Sequence record: OP856590.1 | DNA length: 64,000 bases | Strand: one strand, 5' to 3' | Origin: Escherichia phage Ec_MI-02 | Position numbers and translations under genes: made by a program | In this document: in pieces, positions 2,459 through 43,758 of the stretch | Layout: every line of letters starts with the position of its first letter | Numbering within the stretch: the stretch's first letter is position 1 | Notes under the pieces: generated by a model | Told to the model about the DNA's origin: nothing | The model's input: only the letters and a program-made list of their open reading frames with translations | Database searches by the model: none

Positions 2459-4275
2459 TACTGGCTCATCCATTCTTTACGAAGGTCAGCATTATCTCCC
2501 ATGAGCATTTCAAAAAGCTCTTTCCAATTCTCAGGAAGTTTAACAACATCATATACCGGGTTTTGAATCATCTCACGATATTCAGATTTTTCCAAAGAGC
2601 CAAGTCCCTTAATATAACGGATGCTATGTTTAGGTAGAGCATCTTTGGCACTCTCATATTCAGCGACTGTATAAAACCATTCTTGTTTTTTACCGACCTG
2701 AGCGATGATTACAGGAGTTTTGACGAAACGAATTCTTCCTTGTTCAAACAGTTCTGGCCAATTACTAAAAAATCCGAGCAGAGAAGGATAAATGCTTCCT
2801 AGACCATCGTGGTCAGCATCGGTCATAATAGCAATATTATGATAATTCAAGTTTTCGGCTTTTTCACCAAGAACTAATCCAGTGATTGCGCAAATATCAA
2901 ACAGTTCTTTGTTTTTAAGCATATCAGCATATGACATACCCCAACTGTTGAGAACTTTACCACGTAATGGATAACCACCGTGAAGTTCTTTATCACGAAC
3001 ATCAATAAGATATCCGATAGCAGAATCACCCTCAGTCAAGAAAAGAGTCGTGTCAGCATCTTTACCACAAAGATTCGCTTTAATATGTTTATGAACCTTA
3101 GCTTTAGAGGCCTTTTTAGCTGCTTTAGTTTCTGCTGCTTTTTCTGCTGCCAATTTACGAGCCAAGGCAGCTTCAATAATTGGCATTAAAATTGCTTCAT
3201 TGTTTAAAATAGCGCGTGAAATCTTTTTAGCATCAAGCTGAATATGACTACGAATTTCACCAAATGGAGAAGTCAAACGCTCTTTAGTCTGAGCATCAAA
3301 TCGCATGTTTTTCATATCACGAACAAACATAACGATAGTCAAACATTCTTTAACACGTGCTTTAGTTACATCAATTTTGAACTTACGTTTGATTTGTGGA
3401 ATAAGGTCTTCACAAATATCATCCATAACACAGTCAATGTGATGACCACCATTCTTAGTATGAATGTTATTGACGTATGTTAATTGACGAAAACCATCCG
3501 GTGAACGACCAACCGCAATAGAACAATTTTCTTGTTCTTGAACAATAGCATGCTCATCATATTGGCGTGCATATTTCTTAAAATTACCCTGAACCTTTTT
3601 ACCGTTAAAGGTAAATTGAATATCAGGATAAACTACTGCAAGTGTCTGGAGACGATCTAGTGTAATGTCAAGATAAACCTGAGATAGCTCATTAGTTTCA
3701 AATGACATAAAATCAGGAATGAAAGTAACACGAGTTCCTTTCCATTTTCCAGGAATATCTTCCCATGATTTATTTTCCATGCCATTTGAACAACGAACTA
3801 CAATATTATTTTGACCGTCGCCAGTTTCACCGACAAACATTACAGAAAAAATGTTAGTTAAACTAGAACCAACACCGTTCATACCGCCAGTGACGCGTTC
3901 TTTATCATCACCGAAGTTACCACCTGCTTTTGGAATAGTCCAGGCAGCAACAGGACCAGGAATTTCTTCGCCGGTAGGTGTTTTAACCATCGCTTGTGGA
4001 ATACCACGACCGTTATCTTCAACTGTTACTTGATTGTTTTTAATAGTAACATTAATTTTATTCGCGAATTTAAACTTAGTACGAATACCTTCATCTACTG
4101 AGTTATCGATAATTTCATCAATAAGCTTAACAAGACCAGGTACATACTGAACACTTTCCCATTTACCAAACAGAAAGCGCTCATGCATTTCATTAGCAGA
4201 AGAGCCAATATACATGCCGCTACGCTTTTTGATATGTTCAATATCGCTCAGAATTTTAATTTCATTCTTAATCAT
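2458..4275 (-). CDS. 39: DNA topoisomerase II large subunit, fused gp39+gp60 (605 aa)
   Basis: GyrB-like ATPase start MIKNEIKILSDIEHIKKRSGMYIGSS; continuous ORF; track start at 4278 is GTG, ATG one codon later. Confidence 0.9.
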   Translation of the reverse strand: MIKNEIKILSDIEHIKKRSGMYIGSSANEMHERFLFGKWESVQYVPGLVKLIDEIIDNSVDEGIRTKFKFANKINVTIKNNQVTVEDNGRGIPQAMVKTPTGEEIPGPVAAWTIPKAGGNFGDDKERVTGGMNGVGSSLTNIFSVMFVGETGDGQNNIVVRCSNGMENKSWEDIPGKWKGTRVTFIPDFMSFETNELSQVYLDITLDRLQTLAVVYPDIQFTFNGKKVQGNFKKYARQYDEHAIVQEQENCSIAVGRSPDGFRQLTYVNNIHTKNGGHHIDCVMDDICEDLIPQIKRKFKIDVTKARVKECLTIVMFVRDMKNMRFDAQTKERLTSPFGEIRSHIQLDAKKISRAILNNEAILMPIIEAALARKLAAEKAAETKAAKKASKAKVHKHIKANLCGKDADTTLFLTEGDSAIGYLIDVRDKELHGGYPLRGKVLNSWGMSYADMLKNKELFDICAITGLVLGEKAENLNYHNIAIMTDADHDGLGSIYPSLLGFFSNWPELFEQGRIRFVKTPVIIAQVGKKQEWFYTVAEYESAKDALPKHSIRYIKGLGSLEKSEYREMIQNPVYDVVKLPENWKELFEMLMGDNADLRKEWMSQ

Positions 4276-31013: not shown

Positions 31014-32696
31014 TTAAACCATTACAGTAAATCGACCAACTTTCTTCATTTGAAGATGCTGACCATATGCTTGCGGGTCGTGGTCTCTATGTGAAATAAC
31101 AAAAACATTAGTATTTTTTAAACTATCTAAAATAGTTGAAATAGCTTTTACACCTTCAACATCAGTTGCTGAATCAAAAACTTCATCGAGAATTAGTGTG
31201 TTTATTTTAACACCTGAAACTTTTTCAGCAATATCACGCCAAGTAAATAGAAGAGCAATATCAATTCGTGCTTTTTCGCCTTGACTAAATGAAGCATAAC
31301 TAAAATCTTCACGACCGCGGGATTTAATTGTCTCATTAAATTCTTCATCTAATGTAAACACATAATCCGCTTCCATTATTTTAAGATAATGGTTAATCTG
31401 CTTATTAAATAATGGAATGTACTTTTTAATAATAGCACCTTTAATACCAGAATCTTTGAGCATATCAGTCAAAATTCCTCTGTGGTATTTTTCCATTACT
31501 AAATTAGTTTTTGTCTTAACAATTTTATCAAGTTCTTCTTGAAGCAGTGCTATTTCATCAGCATGGTCAATAAACTCGGATGATGCTTTTTCTATAGCTG
31601 CTTTAACTTTTTTAGCTTTATCTACAGTCGTGATTAGAGATTGCTTTTTATTACGAATATCATTCGCCAACGTCTGCTGGGTTTTAATATTATCTCGGTA
31701 TTCATCAACGAGAACTTTTAAATTATCACGATGTGTTGAAAGCTGTTCAAACGAATGCGTGCATTCAGAAACTTTATCTTTAATTTTAGAAACAACTTTA
31801 TCACCGGAACTTAATTGTGACAAACAGGTTGGACATAATCCACCTTCGTGATACATATTAATGACTTTATTATACGAGTCAATTTTTGATTTAATTAAAA
31901 ATGCTTCTTGACCGATTTTATTAAATGCATCAGTCGGGTCTTCATCCAAAACAATATTAACTAATCTTTCATTAGCTTCTTCTATTTCCGATTTTAGCGT
32001 TCTAGCTTCTTTTGCCAAATCATCATACATATTCTGTAGACGAGTAAGGTTATCACCAGTTAATTTTTTCTGGCGTTCAACGTTATCATTATATATTTTA
32101 ATTTGTTGGATAATACTATCTTTTTTAACATCAAGCACTTGGTTTTGTGAATTTAATTCACGTATTAGTGCTTTATTAAGCTTATCCATTTCAGCTAATG
32201 TTCCTACCTCGAGCAGGTCTTCCACAAGCTTTCTTCGTGCAGGGGTCGACAAACCCATGAAAGGGGTATACCCTGCTGTACCAAGGACAACAATCTGCTT
32301 GAAACTGGCATATGACATTCCGATAAGCTGTTCAAATTCTGCTTGGAAATCTTTACTGCTGGCAGATTCATTAAGACGTGTACCGTTAACGGTGATTTCG
32401 AAAACGTTTGGTTTTTGTCCTCTTTTGATATAGTACTTTTTCTCATCATATTCCATCCACAGTTCAACTAAAAGTTCTTTCTTATTTGTGCTGTTTATTA
32501 ATTGACCTTTCTTTACATCACGAAATGGCTTGCCAAAAAGCCCAAATGTGATGGCTTCTAACATAGTAGACTTACCACCGCCATTTCGTCCAGTAATAAG
32601 AGTTTTTTGAACCTTATCTAGTTGAATGTCAATAGGATTTCCACCTACTGACATTATATTTTGATACCTAACTCGGTTTAGTTTAAAATTCTTCAC
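31014..32696 (-). CDS. 46: recombination endonuclease subunit gp46 (SbcC/Rad50-like, 560 aa)
   Basis: Walker A GRNGGGKST; coiled coil; CPTC zinc hook; GTG start codon. Confidence 0.85.
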   Translation of the reverse strand: MKNFKLNRVRYQNIMSVGGNPIDIQLDKVQKTLITGRNGGGKSTMLEAITFGLFGKPFRDVKKGQLINSTNKKELLVELWMEYDEKKYYIKRGQKPNVFEITVNGTRLNESASSKDFQAEFEQLIGMSYASFKQIVVLGTAGYTPFMGLSTPARRKLVEDLLEVGTLAEMDKLNKALIRELNSQNQVLDVKKDSIIQQIKIYNDNVERQKKLTGDNLTRLQNMYDDLAKEARTLKSEIEEANERLVNIVLDEDPTDAFNKIGQEAFLIKSKIDSYNKVINMYHEGGLCPTCLSQLSSGDKVVSKIKDKVSECTHSFEQLSTHRDNLKVLVDEYRDNIKTQQTLANDIRNKKQSLITTVDKAKKVKAAIEKASSEFIDHADEIALLQEELDKIVKTKTNLVMEKYHRGILTDMLKDSGIKGAIIKKYIPLFNKQINHYLKIMEADYVFTLDEEFNETIKSRGREDFSYASFSQGEKARIDIALLFTWRDIAEKVSGVKINTLILDEVFDSATDVEGVKAISTILDSLKNTNVFVISHRDHDPQAYGQHLQMKKVGRFTVMV

Positions 32697-32956
32697 AAAA
32701 GATTCCTTTTAATGTATCTTTTAGACCATTCTATCATATCATCATAATCTAAAAAGTATTCATCAAATTCAGCCATGCAAACAACACCTTGTGCTGCTTT
32801 TGATGTGATATAAATTATTCCAACATATCTAGAATCTTCTTCGGTGTAATCAATATTTGCTATGAATTCATCGTTAATGTCAAATGTCGAAAACTTCACA
32901 GTATGCATCCTTAATACAAGATACAGCCATATCTTGTAATGATTTAGGTGTATCAT
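32693..32956 (-). CDS. hypothetical protein (87 aa)
   Basis: ORF; overlaps upstream ORF, start uncertain. Confidence 0.4.
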   Translation of the reverse strand: MIHLNHYKIWLYLVLRMHTVKFSTFDINDEFIANIDYTEEDSRYVGIIYITSKAAQGVVCMAEFDEYFLDYDDMIEWSKRYIKRNLL

Positions 32957-36873: not shown

Positions 36874-37092
36874 TTATTTCTCTAATATAAAATAAAAATC
36901 ATCATCTGTTAAATGATACCGATAGTTTAATTCTACACCATTAGATTTAAAAGCGGTATCATACGGATTTTCTGGATCAATATCAATGTCAAGAGCTAAA
37001 ACTTCCCTGAGATACATTTTAAGTAAATAGGGAATAGCTTCAACTTCAGGTATTTCTTCCAAGAATCCGGAGAGGTTAATCGTTAGCCTCAT
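36874..37092 (-). CDS. hypothetical protein (72 aa)
   Basis: ORF downstream of gene 55. Confidence 0.45.
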
Positions 37093-37633
37093 ATAAAAAA
37101 TCCAAACTAGGAGAATCGTCTACAACACTTTTCTTTTCAGCCCCCGGTGTTCTATAGGTTGATTCTTCGTAATGCGTCATTTTATCGTAGATGTCTTGAA
37201 TAAAAGTTTCATCCACTAACGCAACCATATCGTCGTCACGACTGTCATAGACATTGTGAACGAAGTAACTGTATTTCTTTGCAACTTCCTTACGTTCTTT
37301 TTTAATACGTTGGACGAATGCATTAAAACAAGCTTGAGTTATATATGCATGTGGGTTTTTATATTTCGTTTCATCAAAATTATGAAGCCCCTTAATAGAA
37401 GCTTCTATACCATCTGCAATCATTTCTTGTTTCCAAGATTGGGTGTATCCTGAAAAGTTGAAACGTTTAGATAAGCCTTCTGCAATAAGCATAATGGCTA
37501 ATCCGATAGTATCATTCTGACGAACTACTTTATTTGGGTCTTTATTATTTGCTAATTCTGTTTTCCAATCAATAATAGCTTGTAAAAGCTCTTTATTGTT
37601 TACGTAATTATATTTAGGCTTAGTTTCTGACAT
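37076..37633 (-). CDS. 55: late sigma factor gp55 (185 aa)
   Basis: track start GTG; ATG two codons later gives the T4 length. Confidence 0.85.
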
Positions 37634-37711
37634 TTTCACCTCTTAGCTCAATTCATAGATCTATTATATCATAATATTTGAAGATCTATCTTAAAGCATA
37701 GAGGATATCAG

Positions 37712-39535: not shown

Positions 39536-39844
39536 TTAATCTTCTATGATATCTCTATCATATCCAAGTGAAATGAGAGTTTCTTTGAAGTGTTTAATAT
39601 TCTTTTGTCTAGAATCATTAATGAAAATGACTGGATAACGAATGTTAAGAGATGTGAATCCAGCGCGTTTAGCAAGAGATACAATCAGTGGACGATCATA
39701 CTCAATCTTACCATTATTTGTAAGAACTTTATAGAAAGTAAAAGGAGCATTGAGCTCCTTTAGAAGTTTTGTAACTGATTGACATCCAGGACAACGACCT
39801 ACTTCATCTGGAATTCCATAGACTTCAATCTTGTTCTGTTTCAC
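39536..39844 (-). CDS. nrdH: NrdH glutaredoxin-like protein (102 aa)
   Basis: CPGC redox motif; GTG start with AAGGAA SD (no internal Met); UUCG-type terminator downstream. Confidence 0.75.
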   Translation of the reverse strand: MKQNKIEVYGIPDEVGRCPGCQSVTKLLKELNAPFTFYKVLTNNGKIEYDRPLIVSLAKRAGFTSLNIRYPVIFINDSRQKNIKHFKETLISLGYDRDIIED

Positions 39845-40174: not shown

Positions 40175-40645
40175 TTAATCATGTTTCCACACCCCATCGG
40201 TATTTGACCAAAGTCGCTGATTATCTGATCCTCGCCACAACTTTTTGGTCGGAAGATTTTTCTCATACTTCCCATCAATAATAACATCAACATATTTAAG
40301 CATTTCTAGTTGTTTAATATCTTCAAATTTATATCCTGTCCACAACCAAATGCTTTTATTTGGATAAAGATTTTTTACTGTTTGAACAATGCAATGAATA
40401 ACATCTCGGTTATCAGGATAGAGAGGGTCTCCTCCAGTTATAGTTAATCCTTCTATATAATCATTATTCAAACATTTAATTAATTGTTCCAGCGTTTCAC
40501 CAGTGAATGGAACACCGTTTCTAGCATTCCATGTTGATTTATTATAACACCCTTCGCATTTATGCAAACAACCTGTAACGAAAAGAACAGTTCGGCACCC
40601 AGGACCATTAACAAAGCAACACGGATATATTCTGTCATAATTCAT
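40175..40645 (-). CDS. nrdG: anaerobic ribonucleotide reductase activating protein NrdG (156 aa)
   Basis: radical-SAM cluster CLHKCEGC; 156 aa. Confidence 0.85.
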   Translation of the reverse strand: MNYDRIYPCCFVNGPGCRTVLFVTGCLHKCEGCYNKSTWNARNGVPFTGETLEQLIKCLNNDYIEGLTITGGDPLYPDNRDVIHCIVQTVKNLYPNKSIWLWTGYKFEDIKQLEMLKYVDVIIDGKYEKNLPTKKLWRGSDNQRLWSNTDGVWKHD

Positions 40646-41474
40646 TTATATATTTCCAATTATAGCCTTCAACACTTTTACGTTCGCCATTTAAACATTT
40701 TAAAATATTTCCTTTGCTAGAAATATTAAAATATTTTGCTGCGTCTGGTATATAATTAAATGTTTTTAAAAGAACACCATCTTTGTATGCGCCAAATAAA
40801 TTAAGAGTATATTTTTCTCGAAGACGCTGATGTTTCCTTTTCATAACCTCAGGATTTGCATACGCCAGCTTTAATGAATTTCTATGTTTTTCTTTTACTT
40901 CAGGTTTTTGCATTGCTAACTTAGTTAGCCTGGAAATTTTATTTCTAACTTTATCAGTTTTCATTGCATTTGACAAATTTAATAAAGTTTTATTTCTAAC
41001 TTCAGGTTTTTGCATTGCTAACTTAGTTAGTTCGCTATGTCTTTTTCTAAAATCGTCATCTTTCCATATATTTTTCGATAATTTTGACATAGAGCGGTGA
41101 AATAATTCCCTTTCTTTGGAATACAGTTTAAAAATTTCATCCAATTCATCAGTATTAAATCTATCAGTATTCGAGTTTATCATTCTATGAAAGGCATAAC
41201 ACATTTTACTATTACTTGTTTTAGCTAAATAGTAATGAGCCAATGCATGGTCATAATATGACAAATTAACAATATTCCATTTATCTGTTTTATATTCAGG
41301 AAATATAGATTTGGGAAGCACGTGATGTGCTTCCGTTTTCCCCTTTATTTTAGGATTATTATAATTTTTTATTATCAAATCAACATATGACAATAATAAA
41401 TCATTATTTTCTTCAAATATTAAAGTTAATTTATCATTCACAAAATCACAGGGATAAAATCTATCGTAATTCAT
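40635..41474 (-). CDS. HNH homing endonuclease-like protein (mob-like, 279 aa)
   Basis: HNH motif AHHVLPKS...NIVNLSYYDHALAH; inserted between nrdD and nrdG; N-terminus MNYDRFYPC mimics nrdG start. Confidence 0.7.
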   Translation of the reverse strand: MNYDRFYPCDFVNDKLTLIFEENNDLLLSYVDLIIKNYNNPKIKGKTEAHHVLPKSIFPEYKTDKWNIVNLSYYDHALAHYYLAKTSNSKMCYAFHRMINSNTDRFNTDELDEIFKLYSKERELFHRSMSKLSKNIWKDDDFRKRHSELTKLAMQKPEVRNKTLLNLSNAMKTDKVRNKISRLTKLAMQKPEVKEKHRNSLKLAYANPEVMKRKHQRLREKYTLNLFGAYKDGVLLKTFNYIPDAAKYFNISSKGNILKCLNGERKSVEGYNWKYINEL

Positions 41475-43288
41475 TGGTGTTTAACCCTATGCATGATTTC
41501 TTTATTTTTTCCAAGATTAAATCCGCGTTCATTCGGATTTCCCAAATAACCACATGTTCTTCTTATTGTGTTCATCTTTTTAGGATCAGTTTCTCCACAA
41601 ATAGAACAAACAAACCCGTTTTCAGTAGGAGTCATTTCATGGGTACTTCCACACGTAAAACATTTATCTACTGGCATGTTAACACCAAAATAATCTAAAT
41701 GTTGTGCAGCATAATCCCATACAGCCTCAAGACCTTTTAGGTTATTTTTCATATCAGGAAGTTCAACATAAGAAATGTGACCACCTGTCGCAATGAAATG
41801 ATATGGTGCTTCGCGAGAAATCTTTTCAAACGGAGTGATATTTTCTTCTACTGAAACATGGAAACTGTTAGTGTACCATCCTTTATCAGTAACATCTTTT
41901 ACACTTCCATATTTTTCAGTATCAAGTTTACAGAAGCGATAACAAAGGTTTTCAGCAGGTGTAGAATACAAACTAAAAGCAAAACCGGTTCTTTCAGTCC
42001 ACTGCTTAAGACGAGCATTCATTTTAGTTAAAATTTCTTGTCCAATATCACGACCGACAAGAATATTCAATTCGTGAATACCAATGTATCCCAAAGACAC
42101 TGAACTTCTACCGTTTTTAAATAACTCAATTATATCATCATCGGGTTTAAGACGAACCCCGAATGCACCTTCTTGGTAAAGAATAGGAGCAACAGTCGCT
42201 TTAACTCCTTTTAAAGAATTAATTCTACACATCAAAGCTTCAAAGCATAAATCCATTCGCTCATTGAACAATTCGGCAAATTTTTGTTCATTGAACTGTG
42301 TTCCAATATAAGAATCTAACGCAATGCGAGGAAGATTCAGTGTTACAACACCAAGATTATTACGTCCATCAAGAATTTCATTACCAGTCGAATCTTTCCA
42401 TACGCTCAAGAAACTACGGCAACCCATTGGAGAAACAGGAATAGATGAACCGGTGATAGCTTTATTGTTCTTAGCTGAAATAATATCAGGATACATTCTT
42501 TTGCTTGCACATTCTAGAGCAAGCTGCTTAATATCATAGTTCGGATCGTCTTTATAAAGATTAACGCCTTCTTCAACAAACATAACAAGCTTAGGGAAAA
42601 TAGGAGTTATCCCATCGCGACCAAGACCTTTAATACGATTTTTCAGAATTGCTTTCTGAATCATTCGTTCAGTCCAGTCAGTTCCCGTACCAAATGTAAT
42701 TGTTACAAAAGGCGTTTGTCCGTTTGAACTAAAGAGAGTATTTACTTCATATTCATAAGCTTGGAATGCATCGTATACGTCTTTTTCTGTTTTAGATTGG
42801 GCATAATTCAACGCATCAGCGATTTGCCATTTTTCTGCGTCCTCAATATGTTTTGCATAGGTGCGTTTAACATAAGGAGAAAGTACTTTATCTACATTCG
42901 CAAAAGTCGTTCCACCGTATTGGTGAGAAGCAACCTGTGCAGTAATTTGTGCCATAATTGCAGTAGCGACGCCGATTGATTTAGGAGTTTCAATCTGCGC
43001 ATTACCGAGCTTAAATCCGTTCTCAAGCATTCCTTTTAAATCTACTAAACAGCAATTAGTAAATGGAAGAGCAGGGGAATAATCAATATCGTGGAAATGG
43101 ATAATTCCGCTTTCATGCGCTTTCATAATAAAAGACGGGACCATATTTTTGGCAATGTGTTTAGACACAATACCGGCCATAAGGTCCCGTTGAGTTGGAA
43201 AAACACGAGAATCTTTATTAGCATTCTCGTTCAAAAGGTCTTTATTAGTTTTATGAATCAATCCTTCAATTTCTTTTTCAATTGTCAT
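41471..43288 (-). CDS. nrdD: anaerobic ribonucleoside-triphosphate reductase NrdD (605 aa), intronless
   Basis: 605 aa contiguous ORF; C-terminal glycyl radical and zinc ribbon (CFTCGS...CSICG). Confidence 0.95.
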   Translation of the reverse strand: MTIEKEIEGLIHKTNKDLLNENANKDSRVFPTQRDLMAGIVSKHIAKNMVPSFIMKAHESGIIHFHDIDYSPALPFTNCCLVDLKGMLENGFKLGNAQIETPKSIGVATAIMAQITAQVASHQYGGTTFANVDKVLSPYVKRTYAKHIEDAEKWQIADALNYAQSKTEKDVYDAFQAYEYEVNTLFSSNGQTPFVTITFGTGTDWTERMIQKAILKNRIKGLGRDGITPIFPKLVMFVEEGVNLYKDDPNYDIKQLALECASKRMYPDIISAKNNKAITGSSIPVSPMGCRSFLSVWKDSTGNEILDGRNNLGVVTLNLPRIALDSYIGTQFNEQKFAELFNERMDLCFEALMCRINSLKGVKATVAPILYQEGAFGVRLKPDDDIIELFKNGRSSVSLGYIGIHELNILVGRDIGQEILTKMNARLKQWTERTGFAFSLYSTPAENLCYRFCKLDTEKYGSVKDVTDKGWYTNSFHVSVEENITPFEKISREAPYHFIATGGHISYVELPDMKNNLKGLEAVWDYAAQHLDYFGVNMPVDKCFTCGSTHEMTPTENGFVCSICGETDPKKMNTIRRTCGYLGNPNERGFNLGKNKEIMHRVKHQ

Positions 43289-43758
43289 TTTAAACTCTTT
43301 CTAAGCTGCTTCTTAAATGAAGCTATTAATTGTGTTTTAGTGTCAGATTCATTATATTCAAATCCTCTTTGAAGCATCTCAGCCATCATTTCCTCTTTTC
43401 CTAAACGAGAAAATTCCTTTGATTTATCTCCAACGAAGTTAGGGTGAATATTATTTTGGGTGTAATCGGATTTTAAATAAGTAAGTAAATTTTCTAACCA
43501 TTCAAGATAATCAACGCCTTGCCCCTTTAAGCCAGAACGATTAAATTTGTGTTTCATTTGACCTTCCGCTGCATTGCAGAGATTACAGAGCAATCCACGT
43601 ACCTTTCCTGCTTTTGGTCCATTTAATTCATGGTCATGGTCAAGGTGATTAGCTTGAACATCAGGATTTAGTTCTCGTTGGCAAATTAAGCATTTACCGT
43701 TTTGTGCGTTATAAAATTTCTGTTTTTCTTCTTTGTATAATTTGCCAGTCAATAACAT
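43285..43758 (-). CDS. 49: endonuclease VII (Holliday junction resolvase, 157 aa)
   Basis: 157 aa; zinc motif CLICQ...CNLCN. Confidence 0.9.
   Translation of the reverse strand: MLLTGKLYKEEKQKFYNAQNGKCLICQRELNPDVQANHLDHDHELNGPKAGKVRGLLCNLCNAAEGQMKHKFNRSGLKGQGVDYLEWLENLLTYLKSDYTQNNIHPNFVGDKSKEFSRLGKEEMMAEMLQRGFEYNESDTKTQLIASFKKQLRKSLK

Follow-up and report, generated by a model that had tools for sequence, protein, structure and literature searches.

Where does an endonuclease gene that has invaded a conserved phage operon obtain its translation start, and how does the invaded gene survive? Free-standing homing endonuclease genes of T-even phages are textbook selfish genes, yet their mode of expression, and the way in which they enter a genome without destroying what it cannot do without, are understood only in part. 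The question is raised by the genome of Escherichia phage Ec_MI-02 (sequence record OP856590.1), a T4-like phage of the genus Tequatrovirus, in which a gene for a 279-amino acid HNH protein stands at the junction of nrdD and nrdG, which encode the large subunit of the anaerobic ribonucleotide reductase (RNR) and its activating enzyme. A preliminary description of the 64,000-nucleotide (nt) stretch analyzed here (hereafter the window) presented this gene as a free-standing homing-type element lying exactly between nrdD and nrdG. Our results lead to a different explanation, which we hold with a probability of about 0.7: the HNH homing endonuclease gene, of the Mob type, forms the core of a mobile cassette that is inserted in frame inside nrdG and brings with it a recoded copy of the nrdG 5′ end.

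The open reading frame (ORF) of the putative endonuclease was confirmed, and its ATG overlaps the nrdD stop codon as ATGA. As described, nrdD is intronless, its 605 codons being uninterrupted. At its other end the ORF overlaps the start of nrdG, and the chain of nrdD, endonuclease ORF and nrdG contains no intergenic DNA. The parts of the locus are as follows.

41471-43288, minus strand: nrdD, anaerobic ribonucleotide reductase large subunit, 605 amino acids, intronless (PF13597, E = 1.3e-171).
40635-41474, minus strand: endonuclease ORF, 279 amino acids, Mob-type HNH (PHROG 655 and MobD/T6 homology).
41435-41474, minus strand: resident nrdG nt 1-40 (start and codons 1-13), with which the ORF now begins (match to insert-free alleles).
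40606-41434, minus strand: 829-nt block that insert-free genomes lack (aligned with pSs-1 and PST).
40606-40645, minus strand: recoded nrdG nt 1-40, hereafter the CC allele (MNYDRIYPCCFVN), the working nrdG 5′ end.
40616-40634, minus strand: diverged core of the CC allele, nrdG nt 12-30.
40635-40645, minus strand: 11-nt overlap of the ORF end with the nrdG start, the TGA of the ORF lying at nrdG nt 8-10.
40175-40645, minus strand: nrdG, activating enzyme, 156 amino acids (PF13353, E = 3.6e-48).

The first codons of the ORF had been noted as an imperfect copy of the nrdG start. This observation holds, and the repeat is longer than was noted: it is 41 nt long, and its two copies agree at 31/41 nt and 11/13 residues (ATGAATTACGATAGATTTTATCCCTGTGATTTTGTGAATGA at the 5′ end of the ORF and ATGAATTATGACAGAATATATCCGTGTTGCTTTGTTAATGG at that of nrdG, or MNYDRFYPCDFVN and MNYDRIYPCCFVN at the peptide level). 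Apart from a repeat internal to the ORF, it is the best non-self match of the insert in the 64-kb window (E = 0.004 by blastn and by tblastn). The main support for a duplication is the comparison between genomes, not the statistics of the repeat. In about 590 phage records, nrdD directly abuts a single nrdG start. One copy of the nrdG 5′ end was found in every insert-free genome inspected, and two copies at an identical breakpoint in all inspected carriers (six Tequatrovirus, including the window, and three phages of the genus Jiaodavirus), the sequence TTTGTGAATG immediately preceding the breakpoint in both genera. The alignment of junctions with and without the insert, which the preliminary description had proposed as a check, thus bears out the duplication.

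The core of the preliminary interpretation, a mobile HNH gene at this junction that brings a duplicate of its target's 5′ end, is supported; the direction of copying implied there is reversed. The single nrdG start of insert-free pSs-1 (ATGAATTATGATAGATTTTATCCTTGTGATTTTGTGAATGG, followed beyond the breakpoint by CCCTGG) matches the 5′ end of the ORF and not the nrdG start of the window, and the lone nrdG start of nine Tequatrovirus-like insert-free IMG/VR loci likewise matches the 5′ end of the ORF; these nine loci and 19 more distant ones all have Asp at NrdG position 10. The first 40 nt of the ORF are identical at 37/40 positions to the insert-free Tequatrovirus allele of type L006, and the three differences are synonymous and also present in other insert-free alleles, for example those of L012 and pSs-1. 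The start codon and first 13 codons of the ORF are therefore the resident nrdG 5′ end, and the working nrdG start of the window is an imported, recoded copy. Since the insert-free junction aligns to the ORF 5′ end, the missing block measures 829 nt and comprises endonuclease codons 14-279 followed by the recoded nrdG nt 1-40; past about nt 45, the window nrdG is ordinary Tequatrovirus sequence. The insertion point lies within nrdG itself, in frame and 40 nt from its start, so that the placement exactly between nrdD and nrdG is right for the junction as a locus and wrong for the point of insertion. Similarly, a mobile HNH gene does occupy the junction but is not strictly free-standing, as the missing block begins at codon 14 and brings no start codon. 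Ahead of the HNH motif there is a single ATG, that of the resident nrdG, and an MNYDR N-terminus is missing from paralogs at other loci. The N-terminal peptide of the endonuclease is expected to be MNYDRFYPCDFVNDK. Compared to the common allele with Asp10 (the D allele), the CC allele encodes the changes F6I and D10C and has about 10 changes in nt 12-30; all fixed differences between the two alleles fall inside these positions when 540 nt of flank are compared.

A homologous gene, 87% identical at the amino acid level and with the same 11-nt overlap with nrdG, is carried by Klebsiella phages of the genus Jiaodavirus. There the ORF begins with MNFDRIYPSDFVND and is fused to MNFDRIYPSDFVN, the nrdG allele of that lineage itself: the first 40 nt of the ORF in SmallBear and Roth04 are identical (40/40) to the insert-free Jiaodavirus-type loci L023 and L032, and those of UTI-K1 are one base off an insert-free Jiaodavirus-type allele. 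Downstream of the cassette, the Jiaodavirus nrdG starts with the CC allele as in the window (MNYDRIYPCCFVNG), and the distance from ATG to ATG is 827 nt in SmallBear and 829 nt in the window. In both genera, nrdG past about nt 45 and the nrdD flank are lineage-typical. Between the genera, the cassette has 85% nucleotide identity and a synonymous divergence (dS) of 0.93, compared to 68% and 1.7-2.4 for the adjacent nrdG. That the cassette is more alike between the genera than the flanking nrdG indicates a later lateral transfer, the cassette having moved after its flanks had diverged. A homing element is expected to be sporadically present at one precise site among close relatives and to move independently of its flanks, and we observed both: some 31 records carry the gene (about 21 of Tequatrovirus and 10 of Jiaodavirus), and in about 590 the junction is uninterrupted. 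No long co-conversion tracts were found around the insert, the foreign block stopping within a few nt of the repeat. These comparisons define a 0.83-kb block that has been exchanged between phages of E. coli/Shigella and phages of Klebsiella; the window protein itself is 100% identical to one from Shigella phage TB004.

The nrdD/nrdG junction is an endonuclease hotspot of T-even phages, occupied by mobC in T4 and by segH in others (PMC2988022), and the window ORF is a third, distinct occupant. The records include about 73 with segH, about 32 with mobC and 21 with the window type (plus the 10 of Jiaodavirus), and the breakpoints differ, lying at the nrdG ATG (+0) for segH, at +21 for mobC and at +40 for the window type. 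The three occupants share the hotspot, the orientation and the organization as a promoter-less cassette within the nrd operon. SegH differs from the window type in being a GIY-YIG protein unrelated to the window HNH protein, and its gene uses a start of its own, preceded by an 88-nt spacer, and is accompanied by an nrdD whose 3′ end has diverged. T4 mobC resembles the window type in its overlaps with the nrdD stop (4 nt) and the nrdG start (11 nt) and in coding for an HNH domain followed by a putative C-terminal NUMOD-like domain. GenBank already labels the window-type ORF ‘homing endonuclease’ or ‘MobC’ in about 30 genomes, the MobC label being found in PST and SA20RB. If the ORF were an orthologue of T4 mobC, diverged from the same ancient insertion, this would be consistent with the common locus, the identical overlaps, the label and the similar C-terminal ends (GYNWKYINEL and GYTWKYKDEL). 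However, when T4 MobC is compared to the window protein by BLASTP, the alignment is confined to 60 residues near the HNH motif, 38% of them identical; tblastn of the window protein in T4 finds MobD and not MobC; and the ranking of T-even matches places a T6-type endonuclease first (36%), then MobD (31%), then MobC. The proteins also differ in length (279 and 210 amino acids) as well as in breakpoint, the last three codons that they share are nrdG sequence in another frame, and the MNY..IY start seems intrinsic to the MobC clade, as indicated by MNYKLIY in RB33. Orthology with mobC is an explanation that we find very hard to credit.

Two side observations concern these other occupants. In RB6 (locus L036, KM606996.1, 2743-3656), the GIY-YIG gene is segH, 100% identical to the RB3 segH deposit; its cassette has a diverged nrdD 3′ end (ending in GTPSVVPWNLGKMKEMVKRVKHA before the stop) and the 88-nt spacer, and segH is ATGA-coupled to an nrdG that carries the CC allele as in the window. 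The RB6 record labels this gene ‘segD’ and truncates nrdG. The T4 nrdG (locus L035, NC_000866.4, 3447-3917) is a mosaic, in which nt 46-315 are 87-98% identical to Jiaodavirus and 44-76% to the window, and nt 316-471 are 98-100% identical to the window nrdG; this looks like a co-conversion tract adjoining mobC.

The window protein has the following features.

41235-41333, minus strand: HNH catalytic motif, residues 48-80 (invariant alignment columns and profile).
40856-41030, minus strand: internal direct repeat in two copies, NUMOD3-like basic linker (blastn self-match).
40641-40793, minus strand: putative C-terminal DNA-binding domain (NUMOD1 or I-HmuI NUMOD-like), residues 228-278.

In an alignment with relatives and T4 MobC, residues E48, H50, H51, P54, S56, N67, L71, H76, A79 and H80 are invariant. 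The catalytic His and Asn, whose absence would have spoken against the preliminary description, are therefore present, and the protein has the catalytic motif of the HNH superfamily. A family profile aligns the motif to the HNH of McrA (6ghc, E = 0.0065), the pyocin AP41 DNase and Cas8f-HNH; this profile was needed, a single-sequence search of the PDB sequences having returned chance matches only. An AlphaFold model places a strand at residues 47-51, a strand at 68-72 and a helix at 73-84 with a predicted local distance difference test score (pLDDT) above 80, and this predicted beta-beta-alpha unit covers the HNH motif. The protein matches PHROG 655 ‘homing endonuclease’ (E = 1.1e-36) and PHROG 12434 ‘HNH endonuclease’ (E = 9e-15). 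Homology to Mob proteins was found by tblastn with T4 MobD (31% over 60% of the length, E = 8e-8), with the T6-type protein (36% over 70%, E = 4e-14) and with proteins annotated as MobE (34-43% identity). The internal repeat consists of two copies of about 70 nt (40856-40928 and 40964-41030), 79% identical (blastn self-match, E = 2.8e-11), that encode LTKLAMQKPEV... twice, and is a duplicated NUMOD3-like linker module. At the C-terminus, where a modular I-HmuI-like architecture (HNH domain, NUMOD linker and C-terminal helix-turn-helix) would have its DNA-binding domain, residues 235-272 give sub-threshold matches to PF22083 (21.1 bits, cutoff 27) and PF07453 (17.4 bits, cutoff 22.8), for both of which the homolog P0007 is above cutoff, and the region also matches PHROG 7140 and 20162; past residue 210 the AlphaFold pLDDT is below 57, making the model of this region low-confidence. 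A further relative of the HNH domain, P0004 (259 amino acids, from short Logan contigs), is 50% identical, and its C-terminal stretch contains a CPGC motif with a faint glutaredoxin match; possibly its reading frame runs on into, or forms a fusion with, a neighbour of the glutaredoxin type.

The cassette thus consists of the endonuclease body (codons 14-279, without a start codon) and the recoded nrdG nt 1-40. On insertion, the resident nrdG start, its coupling to nrdD (orfX in Jiaodavirus) and its first 13 codons become the start of the endonuclease, and the recoded copy at the 3′ end of the cassette restores a complete nrdG. We propose that the enzyme cuts or nicks nrdG near nt 12-45 when a co-infecting phage has the uninterrupted D allele, and that repair on the template of the cassette-bearing genome then copies the block into the D-allele phage. 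In the carrier, the target may be destroyed by the split at nt 40 combined with the recoding of nt 12-30, which brings F6I and D10C; recoding may also lower recombination between the 40-nt repeats, which would otherwise delete the gene. The comparisons show the anatomy, the breakpoints, the origins of the alleles, purifying selection and transfer between the genera; endonuclease activity, the position of the cut and the roles of recoding in immunity and stability are what we infer. This proposal provides a predicted recognition site, nrdG nt 12-45 of the common allele, for an uncharacterised enzyme, together with natural sensitive (D) and putatively resistant (CC) alleles for that enzyme. A rival view is that the nuclease serves mainly as a weapon in mixed infection, by marker exclusion or degradation of competitor DNA, and that copying of its own gene is incidental. 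Such a role has been argued for T-even free-standing endonucleases generally (PMC2988022), and a conserved nucleotide-metabolism target would hit many competitors. Nothing here separates a weapon from a homing enzyme, and homing would predict what is seen in the two genera, namely one block acquired repeatedly and precisely at one nucleotide; we regard a primary weapon function as a long shot and retain homing as the preferred function.

Several observations weigh against this homing interpretation. A Pfam scan of the window protein gave no match to an HNH family at E ≤ 0.01, and no curated HNH family model (PF01844 or relatives) recognizes it; the Pfam HNH score is 27.6 bits for T4 MobC (cutoff 21.4) and 16.4 bits for P0007. 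Two fold searches with the full-length model returned no nuclease among their matches and told little about the fold. The activity of T4 MobC, an HNH protein, is listed as ‘ND’ and its target as unknown (PMC2988022, Table 1). One carrier copy, that of phage BF15 (locus L039, MW822007.1, near 3720-3875), is frameshifted by one additional A in a poly-A run, its ORF being annotated at 228 amino acids; it is either a decaying copy or a sequencing error. As regards immunity, SegH reportedly cuts both carrier and non-carrier DNA, a finding attributed to Sandegren and colleagues in 2005, and immunity is therefore not obligatory for phage endonucleases. Finally, the CC allele also occurs after segH in RB6 and, without any endonuclease gene, directly after nrdD in ESh24, U5 and ERS-1 (loci L041, L042 and L043), and because it is not exclusive to the cassette it could be a hitch-hiking polymorphism, not an adaptation for immunity.

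The last point is the core of an alternative explanation, according to which the CC 5′ end is a natural nrdG allele of the source lineage of the cassette that hitch-hikes within the repair homology and has no role in immunity or stability. The four genomes just listed led us to reject the proposition that the CC allele is exclusive to the window cassette, and the protein changes F6I and D10C are evidently tolerated. On the other hand, Asp10 was found in 28/28 insert-free IMG/VR loci, which represent several genera, as well as in pSs-1, and a sequence encoding YPCCFVNGPG was not found in IMG/VR. The insert itself was present in 0/28 of the IMG/VR NrdG loci. Among about 744 full-coverage records, the CC allele follows nrdD directly in only three, and the changes are packed in 19 nt with ordinary sequence on either side. 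Moreover, genomes such as ESh24, U5 and ERS-1 would be expected to arise if the two repeats recombined within their first 11 nt, which are identical, and these three are candidates for gene loss by this route; alternatively, they could be resistant alleles or represent the ancestral donor lineage. We consider a purely passive CC allele unlikely, although it deserves to be weighed seriously, and favor a recoded 5′ end that forms a functional part of the cassette.

Could the ORF be an inactive or domesticated remnant, kept only to bring ribosomes to the nrdG start and so avoid polarity? The arrangement of signals makes the question pertinent. No convincing Shine-Dalgarno sequence at normal spacing precedes the window nrdG, and its AUG lies inside the last 11 nt of the ORF. 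Sigma-70-like promoters at the insert were not in excess over expectation, neither an exact T4 late motif (TATAAATA) nor a MotA-type motif was found there, the coding strand contains no terminator, and RNA structure at the two junctions is not significant (z = +1.15 and +0.58). The cassette looks promoter-less, riding on the nrd operon, and translation of the ORF seems to begin at the resident nrdG start, coupled to that of nrdD (orfX in Jiaodavirus). Because the nrdG AUG lies 8 nt before the ORF stop, nrdG is probably translated by reinitiation after the ORF. The remnant hypothesis can also invoke the frameshift in BF15 and the fact that activity of T4 MobC was never demonstrated (PMC2988022). 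On the contrary, the ratio of nonsynonymous to synonymous divergence (dN/dS) of the ORF between the genera is 0.07, which shows purifying selection on the endonuclease gene; it is 0.05 for the HNH domain and 0.01 for the C-terminal domain, at domain dS values of 0.6-1.6. If the ORF did no more than convey ribosomes, neither its amino acids nor its catalytic residues would be conserved, and the greater similarity of the cassette than of its flanks between the genera requires recent movement. We judge a remnant quite improbable and continue to view the ORF as a putative functional endonuclease gene. Its last 33 nt are identical between the genera, which is consistent with a dual constraint by the ORF and nrdG.

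An equivalent arrangement was found at an unrelated gene. T6 (MH550421.1, locus L044, 1714-2640) encodes, between 46.1 and 46, a 284-amino acid Mob-type endonuclease (P0005), unnamed in the record (‘hypothetical protein’), that is the closest paralog of the window endonuclease. Its ORF starts with GTGAAGAATTTTAAACTT, followed at the breakpoint by GAC, and thus opens with 17-18 nt captured from gene 46, the resident GTG start and the 14 nt that follow it. The window is insert-free at the 46.1/46 junction (about 32640-32760, minus strand), and its gene 46 starts with GTGAAGAATTTTAAACTAAAC directly after 46.1 (near 32696, minus strand); the T6 gene 46 has its new start farther downstream, with ATGAAATCATTTAAACTTAAT (MKSFKL, not VKNFKL). 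Because the T6-type ORF carries the resident gene 46 start and a recoded start stands downstream, start-codon capture with a recoded replacement recurs in this clade. The T6-type element shares with the window type the use of the start and first codons of the downstream target and the recoded target 5′ end that follows. It differs in its target, in the shorter capture, and in a 15-nt spacer with a new ribosome-binding region before the restored gene, where the window type has an 11-nt overlap.

The pattern is thus known from nrdG in Tequatrovirus and Jiaodavirus and, for the T6-type element, from gene 46, which is unrelated to nrdG. We tentatively suggest, at somewhat less than even odds, that a clade of Mob-type HNH endonuclease genes without a translation start of their own moves as an ‘ORF body plus recoded target 5′ end’. 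Such a unit would land in frame a few codons into a conserved gene and take over the start and expression signals of its target, and the recoded copy would keep the target working, disarm the site and suppress repeat-mediated loss. In half of the T-even free-standing endonuclease genes, no translation initiation region can be recognised (Edgell, Gibb & Belfort 2010, PMC2988022), and using the start of the target while supplying a recoded replacement would be the answer of one clade to this expression problem. The presence of a cassette in nrdG also corrects the conclusion of a survey that interrupted nrdG is never found in phages (PMC3653736). The element is of a well-known kind at a known hotspot, and it is the start capture and the recoded 5′ end that are modestly novel; the searchable literature yielded no description of such a start-capture architecture for phage endonucleases and no published results on cleavage or homing by this protein. 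T4 mobC had been considered as a third case and was withdrawn: its MNYDRIY start matches nrdG at 19/21 nt, but a MobC-clade paralog at another locus in RB33 starts with MNYKLIY (16/21 nt), so that the likeness may be intrinsic to the family or a result of microhomology.

Related solutions are known elsewhere. The mobA and gene 60 bypass cassette, and mobE in nrdA of Aeromonas phage Aeh1 (PMC2988022, PMC3653736, bioRxiv 10.1101/2022.08.31.505936), likewise place an HNH Mob gene inside a conserved gene, with extra cassette sequence that keeps the host gene working and alters the target site. In these cases the host protein is split in two or ribosomal bypassing is used, whereas nrdG in the window is kept whole by a 40-nt 5′ replacement and its displaced 5′ end serves as the start of the endonuclease. 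Mitochondrial free-standing endonuclease genes, such as those with truncated atp9 copies beside LAGLIDADG ORFs (PMC6506933), share an ORF in frame with or adjacent to its target, a replacement gene end and a displaced resident end. They differ in being located in organelles, in coding for LAGLIDADG or GIY-YIG enzymes and in usually affecting the 3′ end of the gene; in the window cassette it is the 5′ end, so that the translation start of the target is gained. The atp6 element of Allomyces, reportedly described by Paquin and colleagues in 1994, is said to be a further mitochondrial parallel.

Start capture may also explain why such ORFs are mislabeled ‘MobC’ or ‘RNR activating protein’. In UTI-K1 (locus L005, OL870318.1, 3877-4713), the ORF is annotated ‘ribonucleotide reductase of class III activating protein’, possibly as a result of its NrdG-derived N-terminus. 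In Jiaodavirus (loci L003-L005, L023 and L032), a 77-amino acid ORF lies between nrdD and nrdG and overlaps the next start by 29 nt, this being the endonuclease start instead of the nrdG start in carriers. The nrdG of L032 is apparently frameshifted past about nt 255. The HNH cassette occurs with a group I intron in nrdD in PST (locus L001) and SA20RB (locus L038), the endonuclease gene of the intron being annotated I-TevII in the former and ‘homing endonuclease’ in the latter, and without an intron in the window and F25. Because the cassette is found both with and without it, the nrdD intron and the HNH cassette appear to assort independently. Outside the genes discussed above, the neighbouring genes in the window are as follows.

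43285-43758, minus strand: gp49 endonuclease VII.
39536-39844, minus strand: nrdH.
37076-37639, minus strand: gp55.

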